Assembly (NCBI GenBank): GCA_965649265.1
Contig: CBFGKC010000001.1
Coordinates: 204,688 to 268,687 of the forward strand
From: a candidate division WOR-3 bacterium
GTDB taxonomy: Bacteria; Hydrothermota; Tepidihabitantia; B3-TA06
Direction: 5' to 3'
Length of the DNA stretch: 64,000 nt
Below the pieces are notes generated by a model that was not told where the DNA came from, did not search any database, and saw only the letters and a list, made by a program, of their open reading frames with translations. Each line of letters starts with the position of its first letter. The first letter of the stretch is position 1. This document shows, piece by piece, positions 35,213 through 64,000 of the stretch. The position numbers were made by a program, and so were the translations under genes.

Positions 35213-35247
35213 CCCCACAAAATCGTGAACGATTTTGCGGGGACCCC
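35213..35247. repeat. CCCC...GGGG(ACCCC) REP-like hairpin
   Basis: CCCCACAAAATCG-TGAA-CGATTTTGCGGGG. Confidence 0.7.
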
Positions 35248-54648: not shown

Positions 54649-55257
54649 TTAGCTGAACTTTACGCGAAGATCAAGATTCGAGATAAGTCTTTCAAGAAGC
54701 TCCCTGAAAAGCCTGTTCGGGAAGTTGGAAAGGCGAGTCTTTTCCAGGCTGCGGGATATCTCCTTCGACAGGGGGCGAATAGCCTGGTAGGTCTCGTGAA
54801 AGACCGCCGAGAAACGAATCTCCTCGTTATTGGATTTGTCGCGTATGGTGGCTACATAAATAGACTTGGCTGTAAGTTCCCTCTCATCCGAGTCGAGAAT
54901 TTCCTGATTCTCATCCACCGTAATGCCGAGTTCGCCCTCGAGATGAAGCTTTCCGGCAGGCTTTTCCATCTTTGCCTCAAACATGTTCAGGTCAATAAGG
55001 CGCAGCTTGGCCTTGGGCGAATCGTGAAGCAGATCGGATTCGATTGCGGAATCCAGATCGTCAACAATGGTATCCTTCATGCTCTTGAGAAAGCGCTCGA
55101 ACTCCCTGGTGCTCGCGCCGCGGGCAAGAAGGTAAAGAATGTATTGGTTAAGACTTATGCGGTCCGTAAGCGACTGCTCCGCAAGGGTGCGGTGCAGGGA
55201 TACAGGAATCCGCACAAGAAAACGACCGCTAAAGTCTTTTATAAGTTTTCTTCTCAT
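54649..55257 (-). CDS. HicB-type RHH DNA-binding domain fused to a putative SecB-like domain
   Basis: N-terminal FSGRFLVRIP.SLH..LA......ISLNQYI.YLL; C-terminal beta-rich region ending P.RLFRELLERLISNL. Confidence 0.65.
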   Translation of the reverse strand: MRRKLIKDFSGRFLVRIPVSLHRTLAEQSLTDRISLNQYILYLLARGASTREFERFLKSMKDTIVDDLDSAIESDLLHDSPKAKLRLIDLNMFEAKMEKPAGKLHLEGELGITVDENQEILDSDERELTAKSIYVATIRDKSNNEEIRFSAVFHETYQAIRPLSKEISRSLEKTRLSNFPNRLFRELLERLISNLDLRVKFS

Positions 55258-55343: not shown

Positions 55344-56033
55344 TTATTTCCCTTCTAAATCCACCTGATTTTCTTCGTCAAGATTCCCCTTCACTCGCTC
55401 GGTCTTTTTCCCCAAGTTAATTCCAGCCGTAAGATAGGGGCCGTAAATGCCGGTCGGATCCAGTGTGAAGAGGGGTGAGGGGTATACCGGGAAAAGGTAC
55501 CCTCCGGTTACGAAAATTCCGAGAAACCTATCCTCTTTAAACGGAATATTCCCTTGCAAGGTCAGGGAAGCACCGGCGTTCGCCTGCCACAATGTCGACC
55601 TATAGATGTTAAGGGTGGTATCATTGATTGCATCGTTCAACTCGATCAAGGCAAACGAGCCGCCGAACTCTATCGCCGGCTTTATAAAAAGCCATTTGAA
55701 GGGTTCGAAACATAATCCTATTTCAAGATTTCCAATTCCGTAGCCAATGGAAGCATTGTAAAATTGACCGAAACTATTGTGTTTTATGAACCCGCCGCCC
55801 CAGGCGCCGATAGATAGAATGCCGAACCTTCCCCAACCCTGGCCGGTAGGTGTAAGAAATAGTGCGGAGGATATTGGCATATACAGATTGTCTGACGTAT
55901 CACCATTTATATTATCAAGCTGCGCATCAAGAGTAACCAAGATACCGGTTGCCGATACCCCGCCCCAGTTTTCAATCTTTAATCCCCAGGCAACCGTCAC
56001 CAAAACTAAACTTGCAAATATCGCTTTCTTCAC
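55344..56033 (-). CDS. Hypothetical exported beta-barrel-like protein
   Basis: Signal peptide; Gly/aromatic-rich alternating strands. Confidence 0.6.
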   Translation of the reverse strand: MKKAIFASLVLVTVAWGLKIENWGGVSATGILVTLDAQLDNINGDTSDNLYMPISSALFLTPTGQGWGRFGILSIGAWGGGFIKHNSFGQFYNASIGYGIGNLEIGLCFEPFKWLFIKPAIEFGGSFALIELNDAINDTTLNIYRSTLWQANAGASLTLQGNIPFKEDRFLGIFVTGGYLFPVYPSPLFTLDPTGIYGPYLTAGINLGKKTERVKGNLDEENQVDLEGK

Positions 56034-56221
56034 ACATTCTCCTTGACGTCAGTCCTTATCCAGATACCGAAGCATATTCCCCAAAACCGGCCTGTCAAGT
56101 GTATTGATTTTATACATAATAGCACAAAGAGATAACCGCCGGTTGTACAAAAGGGTAACTTACATTCACAGCCATTTTTCTTAAGTGTCAAACAAGCGCG
56201 GCATATGTTTGACAAAACACT

Positions 56222-56237
56222 TGGCACAGCGCTTGCT
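56222..56237 (+). promoter_or_regulatory. sigma54 -24/-12 promoter
   Basis: TGGCACAGCGCTTGCT matches TGGCAC-N5-TTGCW exactly. Confidence 0.8.
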
Positions 56238-56247
56238 TATAATAAAA

Positions 56248-56330
56248 GTGACACGCTAGAGCCACCAAACCTCCTTTGGTTTTGGATGTTTGACAATGGG
56301 GGCCGCGACCGCGGCCCCTTCCATTTTTTT
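56248..56330 (+). ncRNA. Candidate sigma54-dependent small RNA with anti-SD loop
   Basis: Lies between the sigma54 promoter and an intrinsic terminator; hairpin ACCAAA-CCTCC-TTTGGT; no SD-led ORF on this strand. Confidence 0.6.
56295..56330 (+). terminator. Intrinsic terminator
   Basis: GGGGCCGC-GACC-GCGGCCCC followed by TTCCATTTTTTT. Confidence 0.8.
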
Positions 56331-56584
56331 AGCCCCAAGAAATTACTCCGTAATGCTCCGAAATCGTCGTCGTTGCACGTCCTTGGGGACCCCAGCGTCC
56401 CTCGGACACAATGGTCCTCGGAACGCTTTTCTTTTGTCTCAAGTTAGTACCGAGTGTTTTCTTAGGAAATCCTTAATGTTCTTTCGACACCAAAGTCTTC
56501 TGGACGCCTTTTCAGCACCACAAAATTCATCACATTTTTTGCGGGGTCCCCAAAAGAGTGCCTCCGGCAGTCTTTTGGGGTCTA

Positions 56585-58120
56585 TTATTGTATCTCTTCG
56601 AGCTTTTTGCGGGCAAGCGTGCCGGTCTCGCCGCGCGGGTCGAGTGTGCAAGCTTCTCTAAAACACGTGCGGGCGCGATATAAATCAGCCTTCCCTTCGC
56701 CGTTGGTGGAGCACTTCGAGCGTTCAAGATACGCAAGCCCGACGTTAAAGCGCACGTCGGCCAACCCTTCGAACCTGAATCCTTGAATCTTGACGAGTTC
56801 GAGCGCGCGTTCGTAGTGCGTTATGGTGTTGTCCCACTCGCCTTTTGCCAGAGCGACATACGCGAGATCGAGCCTAGCCTGTGTCTCCGTAGCCATATCC
56901 GGGTAGTACTCGAGCGCACGGTGCAGGAAGTTCGAGGCTTCGGGGAGGTTTCGCTCGGCTATGTAACGTTCTCCAATTTCGAGAGATATGCGCGGGAGCG
57001 CCAGCGGGTTGTATCCCGAAAGATTAAGCCGCTCCAGTGCGGGTGCGATGCTCGAGGCCTCGAAAACGGTTCTTGAATGTTCAAGAAGCGCATACACCAT
57101 ACCGGAGTAGGCAAGCGTACGCAGCGTGTCGCCCGGCGGAATCGTGCGCAATAGATTCGCAAACGTTTCGGCGGATAGGTCGTAGCGTTCCTTGAGGCCT
57201 AGTGCGGATGCAAGAAGTATGCGCGCCTCGAGTATGCGGTGAGTATCCGAAGTCACGGCTAAAAGGGAGTTAAGGATGATTGTTGCTGAATCGGGCATCC
57301 AGCGCCGGACCATGATAGCCGCGTAGCGCACTGACGCCTCATCCCAGAAACGCGAGTCGCGATGCTCCCTGTGGAGTGTCTCCCACGCATCGAGCGCGGT
57401 CCAGTTGTCGCCCCTGGCGTTTGCCGCAGTGCCGGACCAGTAAAGCGAATATGGTGTAAGCCGCTCAAGATACGGCATGTACATATCCTGTCCCTGGTAT
57501 TCCTGGGTGATGAGGCTGAAATAACCTGTTGCCGTGTCGAGGGACTCGCGCGTGGACTTTGCTACGTAGGTCAGACCAAGCCCCTGGACTGCAAGCATTA
57601 TGGCCAGGGGGTCCGAGAAGCGCTCTAGCGAACGCTCGAAGCGCGAACGCGCGTATACGAGCGAATCCATGTTCTGCATCGTTCTCAAGAGTTCGTAGAA
57701 CTTGAGGACTTCCGCGGTTTCCTTGAGATAACTGTCTTCGGGGATACGGTCAAGATTCGTCTCGGCCCAGTCTCTGCGGCCAAGCCGCGAGTAGGCCTCG
57801 GCGGCCACAAGAAGCTGCTCCTCGTCCCACTTCACGCCTGTCTCCTTCTCCACATAAAAGAGCACGAGCAAAGCCTTTGCCGGATTTTCCTTGCGGTTGT
57901 AGAGGGCCGATAGCACGGTCGCGGCCTTGAGGCGCTCGTCCGCAGGACGCAAGGAATCCTCGACCATCTTCACGAGGCCGCGCTCGGGATCGCCCCGCTC
58001 GAGAAGCGAGTCCAGGAGCACCTCCACACGCGCCGGCTCCACCGACGGCCGCATAATGCCTGCGTCCCAGAACCCGAAAATTGCAGTGGATATCAAGAAT
58101 AAAATTACCGTGTACCTCAT
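56585..58120 (-). CDS. Exported TPR protein
   Basis: Signal peptide MRYTVILFLISTAIFG; TPR-like helices throughout. Confidence 0.75.
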   Translation of the reverse strand: MRYTVILFLISTAIFGFWDAGIMRPSVEPARVEVLLDSLLERGDPERGLVKMVEDSLRPADERLKAATVLSALYNRKENPAKALLVLFYVEKETGVKWDEEQLLVAAEAYSRLGRRDWAETNLDRIPEDSYLKETAEVLKFYELLRTMQNMDSLVYARSRFERSLERFSDPLAIMLAVQGLGLTYVAKSTRESLDTATGYFSLITQEYQGQDMYMPYLERLTPYSLYWSGTAANARGDNWTALDAWETLHREHRDSRFWDEASVRYAAIMVRRWMPDSATIILNSLLAVTSDTHRILEARILLASALGLKERYDLSAETFANLLRTIPPGDTLRTLAYSGMVYALLEHSRTVFEASSIAPALERLNLSGYNPLALPRISLEIGERYIAERNLPEASNFLHRALEYYPDMATETQARLDLAYVALAKGEWDNTITHYERALELVKIQGFRFEGLADVRFNVGLAYLERSKCSTNGEGKADLYRARTCFREACTLDPRGETGTLARKKLEEIQ

Positions 58121-58424
58121 AATTGACCTCGGCGGATAATTTAATCGGAAAATGGCGCTTGTCAATCGGTAAAAAGCTGGGAAGGGTAAGGAATTTTCTG
58201 TAAGAAAACACCACGTGATAGATCTCCCACCCCTTAACGAAAAGGTACTAACTCCTTATCGGGGTTCCCAACCGAATGCGACACTGAGTGACGACGCTTG
58301 CGGAGTAACCTAACGACAGGGCATACAATGGTTGACGAAAAGCGTATGGTCAGGTTTCTATGGCACGCGTCAGGTTGATGCGTAAAATGCGGGTGTGAGT
58401 GAGATGTAAAAATGGAGGTTCTTC

Positions 58425-58688
58425 ATGATTATTGAAAACGTCGCCAAGGCGTATGAGGCGATATCGCTTGCACTTAAGCGCTGCGACCGCGACCGGCTCG
58501 AAAACGGTTTACGCGACGCGCTGGAATCGGCGCGCGAGGACTTGCTCAAGGCGCTCGAGGAACTCAAGTCGGTGCAGGGTGACGACAAGAAGTTCTACGA
58601 CGCGATTCTCAAGTACGCGCTCTCGAAGAAGGCCGAGCTGGGCGACAACATCACGGACATTCTGCGCTTCCTGGGCCAGGGAAAATGA
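58425..58688 (+). CDS. Small helical hypothetical protein (first gene of the terminase module)
   Basis: GGAGGT SD; closely coupled to the next ORF. Confidence 0.65.
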   Translation: MIIENVAKAYEAISLALKRCDRDRLENGLRDALESAREDLLKALEELKSVQGDDKKFYDAILKYALSKKAELGDNITDILRFLGQGK

Positions 58689-58926: not shown

Positions 58927-59269
58927 AAAGAAGACTCTTGAACCCCCTTTTGACATCGTAGCCTTCAGGCGCAAGGCCATTGCCCAGCTCGAGGAATCCC
59001 GCAATCAGTATCTCGAGACGGTCAAAAAGGCCGCCGGAGAAGACGATATCGCGGCACTCGAAAAAGTGGCACGCCTTCTGCCCGGACTCCTTAAGACCGA
59101 GGAGAAGTTCATTGAAGAGGCGGTAAAGAGCGAACGCAGGCAAAACCTCGAGATTTTCCTCGAACCGCTTTTCCGCGTGCTCCGGGGCGTGTTCGGCCAG
59201 GAGTTCGACGCGAAACGAGAAGAGATTTTAACTTCGCTCGAGGCCGAGCTCGATTCTGATGTCTACTGA
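58919..59269 (+). CDS. Helical protein, positional small-terminase candidate
   Basis: ATG after GAGG; overlaps both neighbours; immediately upstream of TerL. Confidence 0.5.
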   Translation: MGKKKTLEPPFDIVAFRRKAIAQLEESRNQYLETVKKAAGEDDIAALEKVARLLPGLLKTEEKFIEEAVKSERRQNLEIFLEPLFRVLRGVFGQEFDAKREEILTSLEAELDSDVY

Positions 59270-60953
59270 AGATAAGACCCTGCTCCGCGCGTTCTTCGAG
59301 CGCCTGAGCGCTCACGTGCCTCTGCTTGAGCGCTACAGAAAAGACCCCGCGCTCTTCTTTTCGGAGCGCGGGGTCCGCTTCTTTCGCGAGTTCCAAAAGC
59401 TCTTCTCGGAGCTCTACTCGCAGAAGACCCGCAAGGCCGTGGTTCTGGCGCCTCGCGGCGGCGGCAAGACCTTCGGCGCGGCCATGCTCGCGACCGCGTT
59501 CTTTTTGTTCAGGGACTTCGACGTCGGCATCGTGGCAGGCTCGGAGACGCAGGCGCTTGCGCTCTTTTCATACATCGCCGAGTGGCTGGAAATTGAGGAT
59601 ATAGGGGAGTTCGTCGAGCGCATGACTCGCACGGAGATAACGGGCATAAGCGGTAACCGCATAGTCGCGCGAACGGCTTCCGCGCGGTCCATAAGAGGCC
59701 TGCATCTCGGACGCTCGAAGAGGGGCGCACTCCTGATCATAGACGAGGAAGCCGAGGCCGACGAGGAGGTGGTTCGCGCGGCGCGTTACACCGTGAGGAC
59801 GGCGGAACCAGCCCTGATCATGCGGCTCTCGACGTACCACAAGCTTTCGGGCAGCTTTGCCGATCTCGTGGAAAATCATGCAAGCGCAGGATACGAGCTT
59901 TACAAATGGTCGAGCTTCGACGCGGCGAAGCCATGCGAGTTCGACTGCGCGAGCTGTCCGGTCAAAGAGTTCCAGGAGCGCTACTGCCGGGGAACGGCAA
60001 GGACGGCCCAGGGCTGGATAGACGTACGCGAGATAGTGGGCGAGTGGCGTGACTCCTCAAGAGAAACGTTCGAGGTCGAGGTGATGGGCATGCGGCCCGC
60101 GTCCGCAGGCCTCGTAATCTCACCCGAGGCGATAGACCGCGCGGTGGTGAAGGTAGGAGAGTATGACGAGTTCGGAAAAAAATCTGAACACATATCGATT
60201 CCGAGGGGGGAGGGGGAAGAGGAAAGTGCGTGTCACGGGGGGTGTTATATCAATAATTCTTTGAGCGAAGCCCGGAATGGACGCGCTCAAACTAATAATG
60301 AGAATGACCTATGGAATGCAATCGCATCCCAAGGGTCAGACCCTGCCCCGAGGGGTAGAGAGTCCTCTCGCGGAAATGATTCCCTCTTGAATTGGTCCGA
60401 AAAGGGGGTCCGGGAAGGGAGGATTATGTGTTACGGGTTGGATTGGGGGTTTGCGGGCATGACCGCGGTGGTTGTGCTTTCCATTGTGGGTGGGGAGGTG
60501 CGGGTCGTTCACACGGAGTCGTTCGAGCGGCAGGGCATCGAGGAGATCGTCCGGCGGCTGAAGGAACTCCGGGAGCGTTTCGGGGCAAGGGAGGTTTTTG
60601 CCGACTCCTCGCACCCGTTCGAGAACTCGCGGCTTCGGGACGAGGGCTTTGCGGTGTGGGGTCCGAACCAGGGGACGCTGGGCGTGCCGTTCGTAAGTTT
60701 CAAGGAGGAGGGGGTGGCCATGCTTTCGTGGCTCTTCGAGAAGGGGAGGATAAGGATTCCTGAAAGCGAGGTAACACTTTTGAGACAGCTTCGCTCGTGG
60801 CGCCGGGACGCACAAGGACATATCGTGAAAAAGAACGATCATTTCCCTGACGCACTCGTCGCGGCAATGATGAAACTGAAGCTGGCGGGCGCGGGCGGAA
60901 GTTCCAGGCCTCGCGTGTACTCGACATCGAGGAGACGTTTTACGACGATTTGA
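59259..60953 (+). CDS. Phage terminase large subunit-like protein
   Basis: Walker A APRGGGKT, AGS..QA, Walker B LLIIDEE, nuclease GLDWG, FADSS, C-terminal KKNDHFPDAL. Confidence 0.85.
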   Translation: MSTEDKTLLRAFFERLSAHVPLLERYRKDPALFFSERGVRFFREFQKLFSELYSQKTRKAVVLAPRGGGKTFGAAMLATAFFLFRDFDVGIVAGSETQALALFSYIAEWLEIEDIGEFVERMTRTEITGISGNRIVARTASARSIRGLHLGRSKRGALLIIDEEAEADEEVVRAARYTVRTAEPALIMRLSTYHKLSGSFADLVENHASAGYELYKWSSFDAAKPCEFDCASCPVKEFQERYCRGTARTAQGWIDVREIVGEWRDSSRETFEVEVMGMRPASAGLVISPEAIDRAVVKVGEYDEFGKKSEHISIPRGEGEEESACHGGCYINNSLSEARNGRAQTNNENDLWNAIASQGSDPAPRGRESSRGNDSLLNWSEKGVREGRIMCYGLDWGFAGMTAVVVLSIVGGEVRVVHTESFERQGIEEIVRRLKELRERFGAREVFADSSHPFENSRLRDEGFAVWGPNQGTLGVPFVSFKEEGVAMLSWLFEKGRIRIPESEVTLLRQLRSWRRDAQGHIVKKNDHFPDALVAAMMKLKLAGAGGSSRPRVYSTSRRRFTTI

Positions 60954-60976
60954 TAGGCGGGGTATTTATTAGGGGT

Positions 60977-61690: not shown

Positions 61691-61990
61691 TTAGAAGGCC
61701 GAATCGGGCACTCTTGGGCCTAAAGAGGCGTCGAGGAAGCGGACCCGGTTGTCGCCGTACTCCTCTTTGATGAGGAGCTTGAGCGATGGAGTGACGTGGT
61801 AGGCGAAAACTTCTATCTCGAGGCTGCCGCCTGGTTCGCGCCTTACGGTTATTCCCTTTACTTCCGGATGGGTCAAAACCGCCATGTTAGAGCCGAAATC
61901 AATCAGCTTGCTTCCGTAGTCCCTGTTTGGGCGTCCGGGTTGAAGCCAGTCGTCTCCATCCAGGGTTTCGAACTCATCACCTAAAAACAT
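61691..61990 (-). CDS. Small hypothetical protein
   Basis: GGAAGGA SD; probably co-transcribed with the Pro-rich peptide. Confidence 0.6.
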   Translation of the reverse strand: MFLGDEFETLDGDDWLQPGRPNRDYGSKLIDFGSNMAVLTHPEVKGITVRREPGGSLEIEVFAYHVTPSLKLLIKEEYGDNRVRFLDASLGPRVPDSAF

Positions 61991-62297: not shown

Positions 62298-62313
62298 AGC
62301 AAGATTGGAACCA
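62298..62313 (-). promoter_or_regulatory. sigma54 -24/-12 promoter of the peptide gene
   Basis: TGGTTCCAATCTTGCT (GG-N10-GC with TTGCT). Confidence 0.65.
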
Positions 62314-62485: not shown

Positions 62486-64000
62486 TCAGAGGCTTTTTGT
62501 GCGGGCAATGCCGTAGCGGGTAATGAGTCTTGAAAGGTGCTGGCGGGAGATGCCAAGGTGTTTTGCCGCGCGGCTTACGTTCCCCCTGGTCTCGAGGAGG
62601 ATGCGTCTTATCAGCTCTTCCTCCTCTATCTTGCGCGCATCCTTCAGGCTTTGCGTATCGAAAGGCACTGCGGGGAAGAAGCGCTGATCCAGGAACTCCT
62701 TCGTTATCCTCTTGCCTCGCGCGAGTATGACCGCTCGCTCCAGGACGTTCGCAAGCTCCCTGATATTCCCAGGCCAGGGGTAGGCTAAAAAGGCTTCCAT
62801 GACGTCTTCGCCTATCTCGTTGACTTGCTTGTTGAGTTCGAGAGAGGAGCGCTCGACGAACAGTCTGCAGAGCTCGGGAATGTCCTCTTTGCGTTCTCGC
62901 AGCGGCGGTATGTACAGCCTGAAAGTGTTTATGCGATAGTACAAGTCCTCCCTGAAACGCCCCTCCCTGGTCTCCTTTTCGAGATCCTTGTTTGTCGCGA
63001 AAATGAAGCGCACGTTGATTCTTCGTTTTGACGATTCGCCGAGCCTGCGGATGACCCTTTCCTCGATCACCTCCAGGAGCTTGGCCTGCATGGTAGAGGA
63101 GGTGTTGGTAATCTCGTCGAAAAAGACCGTTGAGCCGTCCGCCGCCTCAAGCAGGCCTATCTTGCTCTCTAGCGCGCCGGTGAAGGAGCCTTTGTGATAG
63201 CCGAACAGCTCGGCCTCAAAAAGGTTTTCGGGCACGATTCCGGAGTTGATTGAGCAGAATTCCCGGCCGCGGCGAAGGCTTTTCTCGTGAATGAGTCTTG
63301 CCATTACGCCCTTGCCCGTGCCTGTTTCTCCCTCGAGGAGGACGTTGGCCTCCGAGCGTGCGGCGCGCTCTATCTGGCTGTAAAGCTCTCGCGTCGATGC
63401 GGCATTCCCGAGAACGACGCCCGATTTTTCCCATTTGCGCCTTTCCCTGGTCAGTCTTATCTCCTCGCGCATCTTTGCGAATTCCGACGACTTGTCGATG
63501 GTCGCCGCGAGTATATTGCCGAGAGATTCGAAGTAGGCGGCGTTTTCAGGGTCGAAAAGGCCCGTAATCGGGCTGTCCAGATAGATGGTTCCCAGAAGCT
63601 TGGAACTGGTCTTCAACGGTATGCAAAGAATGGAGCGTATCTCGTTCAAAAGAAGACTCTTGGAGCGGTTGAATCTCCAGTCAGTCGTCGCGTCGGCCGT
63701 GTATATGGGTTCAAGGCCCTGGGTAATGCGCCTCATGACGGTCTCGGAGATGCGCCGGGCCTCGTGTCTTGAAGGCGCGTCCGTTTGCTTTGATGCCACG
63801 GCGTAAAGCTTGGAGTCCTCGTGCAAAAAGATGATTCCTCTCGCCGCGGACGTAAGTTCGAGGATCACGGCGAGAACCTGTATCATGAAGTCTTCTTCGC
63901 CGAGGCGGTAGTTTATCAGCTCGCTGATTCGCTTGAACCCTTCCAGGTACTGCGGAGCAAGTCCTTTTTGTTCGCGCCATCGCGAAAAATGTTCCGCGCG
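62486..64000 (-). CDS. sigma54-dependent enhancer-binding protein (GAF-AAA+-HTH); N-terminus beyond the window
   Basis: GETGTGKG, ELFGY..GSFTGA, FFDEI, FREDLYYR, WPGNIREL, Fis-type HTH; frame open to the window end. Confidence 0.93.
   Translation of the reverse strand, partial: RAEHFSRWREQKGLAPQYLEGFKRISELINYRLGEEDFMIQVLAVILELTSAARGIIFLHEDSKLYAVASKQTDAPSRHEARRISETVMRRITQGLEPIYTADATTDWRFNRSKSLLLNEIRSILCIPLKTSSKLLGTIYLDSPITGLFDPENAAYFESLGNILAATIDKSSEFAKMREEIRLTRERRKWEKSGVVLGNAASTRELYSQIERAARSEANVLLEGETGTGKGVMARLIHEKSLRRGREFCSINSGIVPENLFEAELFGYHKGSFTGALESKIGLLEAADGSTVFFDEITNTSSTMQAKLLEVIEERVIRRLGESSKRRINVRFIFATNKDLEKETREGRFREDLYYRINTFRLYIPPLRERKEDIPELCRLFVERSSLELNKQVNEIGEDVMEAFLAYPWPGNIRELANVLERAVILARGKRITKEFLDQRFFPAVPFDTQSLKDARKIEEEELIRRILLETRGNVSRAAKHLGISRQHLSRLITRYGIARTKSL

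Follow-up and report, generated by a model that had tools for sequence, protein, structure and literature searches.

In the present analysis, we have examined a stretch of 64,000 nucleotides from a candidate division WOR-3 bacterium (contig CBFGKC010000001.1), here called the window, and within it a short intergenic locus of the plus strand, where the original prediction, made from the letters of the window, had placed a stand-alone sigma-54-dependent small RNA (sRNA) that displays an anti-Shine-Dalgarno (anti-SD) loop. The locus is composed of an upstream dyad, a second inverted repeat, a sigma-54 promoter and a predicted RNA of ~83 nt (56248..56330, plus strand), which ends in an intrinsic terminator. 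We consider it probable, with moderate confidence, that the locus encodes a stand-alone, sigma-54-dependent, trans-acting sRNA of ~83-100 nt that occludes SD sequences and that belongs to one family of Stahlbacteria.

The promoter of the RNA, TGGCACAGCGCTTGCT (56222..56237, plus strand), has its GG and GC 10 nt apart and agrees with the -24/-12 element TGGCAC-N5-TTGCW at its exact spacing; it is the sole zero-mismatch match to TGGCACNNNNNTTGCW in a scan of the 64-kb window, where the 21 two-mismatch matches are at chance level (22 matches in total, against a shuffle mean of 22.8). This perfect sigma-54 promoter, which had been reported at the same position by the original prediction, is kept as TGGCA[CT]-N5-[TAG]TGCT in all 20 distinct copies of the locus, 23-24 nt 5' of the near-invariant core of the RNA, and the ~10 nt that separate the promoter from the core are freely variable across the copies. 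A promoter scan of the window called no sigma-70-type site on the plus strand at the start of the RNA. The genome encodes rpoN (Sigma54_DBD match, 151 bits), the absence of which had been named as grounds for abandoning the prediction, along with nine Sigma54_activat proteins; at least two sigma-54 activators are encoded in each of 11 family genomes, with those of genus g3 having just two or three.

The 20 copies have been collected by several searches. When the intergenic region was used as the blastn query, its central ~120 nt were matched in 10/10 other genomes of the family, from four genera, and in 0/50 genomes of other families. The covariance model R1, built from 13 copies, scored 89.6-112.2 bits in 10/10 family genomes (88.7-112.2 bits on homologues overall), while the element was not found by R1 in 121 other genomes of the class, where a single match of 27.8 bits occurred (G120, 75% GC). 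Exact-pattern scanning of public genome contigs gave five stretches, four of them confirmed by the model, and the metagenome pattern scan gave 12, nine of them confirmed; 20 distinct copies were retained after the removal of duplicates. Several candidates have been rejected: three genomes of the same order (G012, G011 and G013), matched at 17-22 bits with laxer filters, have neither a CCUCC loop nor a GG-N10-GC promoter; a 30-bit match in G002:C72 (L055) has no sigma-54 promoter and has its CCUCC within a stem; and four pattern matches without a model match (L057, L062, L063 and L072) were dropped. The search in relatives that had been suggested as a check has therefore recovered promoter, CCUCC loop and terminator in all ten other genomes of the family, and the joint conservation of promoter, transcribed core and terminator in 20/20 distinct copies bears out the proposal of a stand-alone sigma-54-type sRNA gene; judged by this conservation, the locus is a genuine gene and not a chance arrangement, and the predicted RNA is a conserved feature of a single Candidatus Stahlbacteria (WOR-3) family. 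The copies are of two types: type 1, which includes the copy of the window, has the loop CCACCAAACCUCCUU, and type 2, with four copies, has CCAUAAAGCCUCCUU; in G002 and G005, a second copy of the element is of type 2.

The start of the RNA, near 56248, is predicted from the position of the -12 GC, and its end from the T-run; the conservation across the copies begins at the predicted start. The core of the RNA, GACACGCTAGAGCCACCAAACCTCCTTTGGTTTTGG(G)ATGTTTGAC, is near-invariant in the four genera and is followed by a linker of variable length, which is short in the genus of the window and elsewhere long enough for a middle hairpin. The fold of the predicted RNA reaches z = -3.48 against shuffles. 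In the RNAalifold consensus of the 20 sequences, the 5' part of the RNA forms a stem-loop (stem-loop 1; 56250..56290, plus strand) with a 12-nt apical loop, CCAAACCUCCUU (56265-56276); its 13 pairs, four of which vary, in the 5' arm only, are broken in none of the sequences, so that 100% of the cells are paired, compared to 95.8% (5 of 119 cells broken) for the 6-bp hairpin ACCAAA-CCTCC-TTTGGT (56264-56281, plus strand) that had been read from the sequence by the original prediction. The letters of the shorter hairpin are there as described, but the longer hairpin is the fold best supported by the 20 homologues, and the shorter one is probably not the native structure. CCUCC is looped out in both folds, and its exposure, as claimed earlier, is borne out by an unpaired probability of 0.74-0.94 for CCUCCUU in the six homologues that were folded.

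The intrinsic terminator (56298..56330, plus strand), recognized both by a terminator scan and by the 20-copy consensus, consists of a GC-rich stem-loop (stem 56298-56319), a conserved UUCC and a U-run (T7, 56324-56330); the GC-rich terminator with its T7 tail, already noticed in the sequence, is thus called independently. The terminator hairpin is present in all 20 copies, with an interrupted U-run in some copies of genus g3; of its eight consensus pairs, three have changed on both sides in a compensatory manner (in 9, 4 and 8 sequences), and no cell is left without pairing (100% paired). Over the entire structure, pairing is likewise complete (100% of 417 cells), compared to just 34-57% when the partner columns are slid as a control, and the covariation score was reached by 0/500 shuffles.

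We regard it as most improbable that the locus instead acts in cis, as the leader or attenuator of a gene further downstream, or that it is a minus-strand gene of a small protein or type I toxin that uses the AAGGAGG complement of the loop as its SD. On the minus strand, AAAGGAGG is indeed followed by GTG or ATG 3-5 nt later in 20/20 copies, and a 25-aa open reading frame (ORF) at this place had been named by the original prediction as the mark of a type I toxin-antitoxin-like pair; but the minus-strand ORFs range from 8 to 73 aa and share no more than five N-terminal residues, encoded within the conserved RNA core (MALAC in 15/20 copies, variants in the rest). The plus-strand ORFs, of 7-46 aa, have no SD and share only MFD. 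No conserved ORF is therefore found on either strand of the RNA in the 20 copies, nor a conserved small hydrophobic antisense ORF, and a type I toxin-antitoxin pair has been rejected. As for a leader, the type-2 copies, which follow a 5'-nucleotidase gene, have a same-strand gene that begins ~30-40 nt after the terminator; yet at the type-2 loci L021 and L024 this gene has its own sigma-70-type promoter (TTGACT-N16-17-TATCCT), placed for a leaderless start, and beside the type-1 copies, including that of the window, the downstream gene is convergent. In the window, no plus-strand gene follows the RNA, in agreement with the earlier reading: credible genes resume on the minus strand (56585-58165), while the first ORF that follows the RNA on the plus strand, whatever its size, begins at 58432. 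Having its own promoter and intrinsic terminator, and being neither coding nor a leader, the locus has, at the level of its sequence, the properties of an sRNA gene. The layout of the downstream genes of L021 and L024 (TTGACn, a 16-17 nt spacer, a -10-like hexamer, 6 nt, ATG) is also seen at the leaderless orthologues, in genus g3, of the gene at 55344-56033 of the window.

Upstream of the promoter, the comparison of 19 loci, i.e. those with at least 110 nt of upstream sequence, has revealed a conserved dyad, a candidate enhancer or upstream activating sequence (UAS). The full dyad, GTRYAA-N3-9-TTRYAC, is located at -90 to -92 from the T of the -24 element in 16/19 loci, i.e. within the ~70-150 bp upstream that characterize a UAS, and its right half-site, TTRYACA, is located at -79 to -81 in 17/19 loci. 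In the window, the dyad position is 56129..56149 (plus strand), and the copy retains the right half alone: of the two half-sites, the left one (GAGATAA, 56129-56135) is degenerate, and the right one (TTGTACA, 56143-56149), situated 79 nt upstream of the T of TGGCAC, is good. The dyad belongs to the promoter of the RNA, because it travels with the RNA in the type-2 loci, where it is kept although the divergent neighbour gene is absent. The strict dyad pattern has five matches in the genomes of five relatives, every one of them at an sRNA locus; G001 and G004, with deviating dyads, gave no match. The dyad thus appears to be private, or nearly so, to the sRNA promoters, and this recalls activators whose main output is an sRNA. 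A search of the source genome for two dyad types beside sigma-54 promoters was uninformative. A looser look pointed to another sigma-54 promoter outside the window, TGGCACAACACTTGCT (G000:C26:13360, plus strand), with a dyad that resembles that of the sRNA (TATAAC-CGG-TTATA) 87 nt upstream; it precedes a gene for a 130-aa secreted protein, which may be co-regulated with the RNA.

The element that had been noticed in this region by the original prediction is a different one, a perfect 9-bp inverted repeat, TGTCAAACA (56186-56194)-N11-TGTTTGACA (56206-56214), centred ~48 nt upstream of the predicted start. The repeat (56186..56214) is perfect, as described, but it lacks conservation: at the aligned position, the 19 remaining copies have differing, mostly weak dyads, and L070 alone has a similar repeat, GTCAAATA..TATTTGAC. 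On this comparison, the repeat is specific to the source lineage and is not the conserved enhancer; it could be the site of a second regulator or a DNA-bending site. The word ATGTTTGACAA occurs twice in the window, once over the right arm of this repeat (56205-56215) and once inside the conserved RNA core (56287-56297), a duplication that is confined to this window.

A candidate for the protein that binds the dyad is encoded at the end of the window, where the C-terminal part of a giant enhancer-binding protein (62486..64000, minus strand) matches the sigma-54 activation domain. The gene continues to G000:C1:272335, giving 1720 aa with an assembly gap, which is flanked by a duplicated stretch, and the source genome has three paralogues (C1, C4 and C7). 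The orthologue from G003 has the architecture Pkinase - AAA_16/STAND - TPR - GAF - Sigma54_activat - HTH_8. The giant activator is located ~7 kb from the RNA, with the same gene order, in 4/4 loci that are long enough (the window, L103, L104 and L069), and this synteny across genera makes it a candidate activator of the RNA, as had been suggested for the gene at 62486. The architecture is class-wide, with 28-36% identity in a search of the class, so that the giant activator is not co-restricted with the RNA. In addition, a second, weaker sigma-54-like site, TGGTTCCAATCTTGCT (62298..62313, minus strand; a two-mismatch match), closely follows the activator gene and precedes a 99-aa ORF (61691-61990) whose product is secreted and rich in proline. 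Its counterpart in genus g3, TGGCCCTTGATTTGCT, is preceded by TGTCACAATATTGTGACA-type palindromes (of the type TGTCACA-N4-TGTGACA), and the dyad at the site beside the giant activator differs from that of the sRNA, which counts against a simple assignment; of the suggested regulator, the synteny stands, while the promoter adjacent to it carries another dyad. The TGGTTCCAATCTTGCT site and the 99-aa ORF are probably the giant activator's own adjacent target. Upstream of TGGTTCCAATCTTGCT there is a TGTCGC/GTGACA palindrome, and the palindrome before TGGCCCTTGATTTGCT in genus g3 is perfect, CTGTCACAATATTGTGACAG.

The loop of stem-loop 1 duplicates the end of the 16S rRNA. In the source genome, the gene for 16S rRNA terminates in GGATCACCTCCTTTCT, and the loop stretch ACCTCCTTT (56269-56277) is identical to this anti-SD tail over 9 nt; ACCUCCUUU is likewise identical to the genome's own 16S rRNA 3' tail, so that the earlier recognition of the CCTCC stretch as 16S 3'-tail sequence is confirmed against the genome itself. 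The proposed seed, CCUCCUUUGGUUUUGG (56270..56285, plus strand), is composed of the 3' half of the loop, including the anti-SD core CCUCC (56270-56274), and of the 3' arm; it is invariant in 20/20 copies, including the type-2 paralogues, which have a different 5' half of the loop. We have taken CCUCCUUUGGUUUUGG(G)AUGUU, which is common to both types, as the putative seed.

In the mechanism that we propose, an enhancer-binding protein, bound to the dyad ~90 nt upstream of the -24 element, would activate the sigma-54 RNA polymerase at TGGCAC-N5-TTGCT; transcription would start near 56248 and would stop at the intrinsic terminator; the 5' stem-loop of the RNA would present, in its 12-nt apical loop, CCUCCUU, i.e. 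the letters of the 16S anti-SD core; and the loop would pair with AAGGAGG ribosome-binding sites. In leaders that also carry (C)CAAAACCA, the pairing would spread into the G-U-rich 3' arm, up to 16 bp. The pairing would block the binding of the 30S subunit, and the sign of the regulation would be repression of translation. For an RNA with such a seed, SD occlusion would be the natural mechanism; the expression of the RNA, its mode of pairing, the direction of its effect, its activator and its target set are what we infer.

Exact complements of 13-16 nt to the seed have been found at translation-initiation regions. The complement CAAAACCAAAGGAG occurs five times in the source genome, once as the antisense of the sRNA itself and four times at translation-initiation regions, and in this respect ranks 1/84, the other 83 composition-matched permutations averaging 0.14 occurrences and never exceeding 2. 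The four genes encode two lipoproteins, one of 119 aa and one of the beta-helix type, along with a Porin_O_P-family protein and a protein of 120 aa; the porin gene is located at C2:46207-47217, and the leaders of C6:147541-147903 and C7:38698-39057 are further candidates. The 13-mer AAAACCAAAGGAG has 24 sites other than the sRNA in 11 family genomes, and 10/15 of the inspected ones are located 2-17 nt before an ORF start. Among the orthologues of the Porin_O_P-family gene, ACCA(A/G/T)AGGAGG precedes the start in 6/8 of those with a recognisable SD-led start region; at two further loci, no such start region was seen. The predicted targets are mostly secreted or envelope proteins, including the Porin_O_P-family porin.

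The evidence on the targets is mixed, and several observations weigh against the proposed trans-acting, SD-occluding sRNA, or against its specificity. Stem-loop 1 shows no double compensatory change, all of its variation consisting of transitions opposite U or G that would pair anyway, which makes it a weak test of the hairpin. In an RNAduplex scan of 6,274 start windows, the real seed gave 78 windows at or below -24 kcal/mol, compared to 13-91 for ten seeds with shuffled flanks, in which CCUCC is kept, and thus places second of 11, with no excess over the shuffled flanks. The SD-preserving control motif CAAAACAAAGGAG has 14 sites in the family, compared to 24 for the real motif and three for another control; because this control reaches 14, the excess of extended-match sites is modest and A/C-rich leaders are common. 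The orthologues of the candidate targets of the relatives are only partly complementary in the source genome, which contains 297 AAAGGAGG sites. Lastly, neither Hfq nor CsrA was detected in the genome, where ProQ was not searched for.

Another explanation, which takes up the shift from SD-led to leaderless transcripts suggested in the original prediction, is that of a global anti-SD decoy: the RNA, induced to high copy, would mimic the free 16S 3' tail, coat the strong SDs and tilt translation towards leaderless and weak-SD mRNAs. This explanation, which we hold to be unlikely, would account for the 9-nt identity of the loop with the 16S tail and for the result of the energy scan, where most of the pairing potential lies in CCUCCUU and not in the flanks. 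In a crude count of the ORFs of at least 120 aa, 29% have a strong SD, compared to 2.7% in the control, and 9.5% have a leaderless signature, compared to 0.6% in the control; the many leaderless mRNAs that had been noted in this genome are therefore found again in the count, and both features fit a decoy. The divergent neighbour of the RNA, moreover, is SD-led in the source genome and leaderless in genus g3, i.e. its orthologue has switched its mode of initiation within one family, so that the family makes active use of either mode; for the same reason, this neighbour has been ruled out as a conserved SD target. Yet a single sRNA would need to titrate hundreds of mRNAs; the invariant part reaches well past the anti-SD letters (UGGUUUUGG, GAUGUUUGAC), which suggests specific partners; and an enrichment of exact complements that include the extension is seen at a small number of start regions. 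The known sRNAs with an anti-SD loop, furthermore, act on defined regulons, as is described for NfeR1 in the available text of its report (PMC10746234). In the fullest form of the decoy, which we find quite unlikely, the RNA would be an inducible free anti-SD tail: a dedicated activator, possibly the giant one, would drive it to high levels, SDs would be masked genome-wide, and the ribosomes would be re-allocated to leaderless mRNAs. The leaderless class concerned amounts to about a tenth of the genes, with the SD-led or leaderless state varying among the orthologues of the family.

The same identity with the 16S tail could alternatively serve a protein: the loop would mimic the 3' end of 16S rRNA and would thereby capture or titrate a protein by which the tail is recognised, such as a ribosomal protein, an rRNA-processing or rRNA-modifying enzyme, or an initiation factor. 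The ~45 nt that are near-invariant across four genera are more than a seed alone requires, no Hfq or CsrA has been found in the genome, and sigma-54-dependent protein-sequestering sRNAs, such as CrcZ, are known; all of this, together with the 9-nt identity, speaks for a protein-binding RNA. On the other hand, each RNA has one copy of the motif, whereas the known sponges have several; there is no conserved candidate partner protein adjacent to the RNA, apart from the TPR protein and proteins of unknown function; and the complementary sites are enriched at start regions. We consider a protein-binding RNA very unlikely.

The SD-occluding sRNA that we propose has been compared with known systems. 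The Rfam search that had been suggested as a check gave no known family, at either gathering or permissive thresholds: two tRNAs alone pass the gathering threshold in the window, and the best match in 55900-56700 is AniS, with 19.4 bits (threshold 50; E = 1.2). The loci of Qrr1-5 (LuxO), GlmY/GlmZ (GlrR) and CJnc230 (Campylobacter) have a similar arrangement, in which an sRNA gene stands alone behind a -24/-12 promoter and a dyad for the activator lies further upstream; the present locus differs from these sigma-54 sRNAs of Proteobacteria in that the RNA is unrelated in sequence and structure, belongs to the phylum WOR-3, where no Hfq was detected in the genome, and has an anti-SD loop as its predicted seed, unlike the seeds of Qrr or GlmZ. 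RsaE and RNAIII are further examples of sRNAs with C-rich loops. The transcriptional control of GlmY/GlmZ is addressed in the available text of PMC3045617, and CJnc230 is described as RpoN-dependent in that of PMC11187230.

With Alpha-r14/NfeR1 (the "cuckoo" RNAs), the RNA shares an anti-SD motif in an unpaired hairpin region, with occlusion of the ribosome-binding site as its predicted function. According to the available text on NfeR1, its anti-SD motif occludes the ribosome-binding sites of several mRNAs, the RNA has three hairpins, each with CCUCCUCCC, and it is activated by LsrB and repressed by NtrC (PMC10746234); its promoter, as far as it is described there, is not of the sigma-54 type, unlike that of the present RNA. 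The two or three hairpins, each with CCUCCUCCC, that define the Alpha-r14/cuckoo group are not found here: there is a single CCUCCUU loop and no CCUCCUCCC, and unlike in the three-hairpin NfeR1, the one loop, CCAAACCUCCUU, is continuous with the invariant 3' arm. NcS25 of Burkholderia cenocepacia is, in the available text, a short sRNA beside an outer-membrane protein gene, with a proposed seed of seven single-stranded nucleotides complementary to the SD, a porin mRNA as its target and a pairing that is proposed to extend by the opening of part of its own structure; it is constitutively expressed and is not described there as sigma-54-dependent (PMC10117139). The present RNA resembles NcS25 in its place beside the gene of a possible outer-membrane protein, in its predicted SD-complementary seed, in the proposed extension of the pairing into its own stem and in its predicted link with a porin, and is unrelated to it in sequence.

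In the literature that we have found, supplementary files being outside the search, there is no description of the present RNA, nor of an sRNA that acts as a decoy of the 16S tail, and no sRNA is described for WOR-3/Stahlbacteria, the available text of the papers being concerned with metabolism, taxonomy or RNA polymerase. As judged from its sequence, the RNA is a new sRNA family of known design, which combines the sigma-54 dependence of Qrr and GlmY/Z with the anti-SD seed of NfeR1 and NcS25. Riboregulation is essentially uncharted in WOR-3/Stahlbacteria, and here a complete putative regulatory module can be read from the sequence: a near-private dyad, a sigma-54 promoter, an invariant seed, a terminator and a short list of predicted envelope targets. 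The combination of an enhancer-dependent promoter with sRNA pairing, known from Proteobacteria, would thus have arisen also in a deep uncultured lineage without detectable Hfq; the seed, with nine letters in common with the 16S tail and set in a genome of mixed strong-SD and leaderless genes, could offer a natural test case for the specificity of anti-SD sRNAs, and all parts of the module are small enough for reconstitution in E. coli.

The gene order around the type-1 copies is as follows: a gene with a HicB domain, the divergent gene of a 229-aa signal-peptide protein, the RNA, the convergent gene of a TPR protein, two genes of unknown function (one of them weakly terminase-like), the 99-aa secreted ORF and the giant activator. 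The divergent neighbour (55344..56033, minus strand), syntenic with the type-1 copies, matched no Pfam family and is possibly an outer-membrane beta-barrel protein. The HicB-domain gene (54649-55257, minus strand) encodes a 202-aa protein with an N-terminal HicB-family domain, which is found beside the locus in every long relative locus, with 62-70% identity; its start region in genus g3 carries CAAAACAAAGGAG, which is a one-base-deletion variant of the target motif. The product of the terminase-like gene (59259-60953, plus strand), of 564 aa, matches Terminase_6C weakly (E = 4.8e-5); with 65-76% identity, it is encoded at the corresponding place in genus g3 as well, on the interval that separates the RNA from the activator.

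Lastly, a genome-wide family of hairpins, similar to repetitive extragenic palindromic (REP) elements and of the form CCCC-stem-loop-stem-GGGG-ACCCC, has two copies that flank the RNA locus (56333-56393, plus strand, and 56543-56582, minus strand). Words of this family are GGGGACCCC, located at 35239, 51305, 54260 and 54456, and GGGGTCCCC, located at 60972, 61163 and 61594; the two words together have 186 occurrences in 2.74 Mb, compared to 6-22 for control words of a similar kind. Stems of at least 10 bp are formed by at least 36 copies of the REP-like family, and blastn detects copies also in the sister genome G001.

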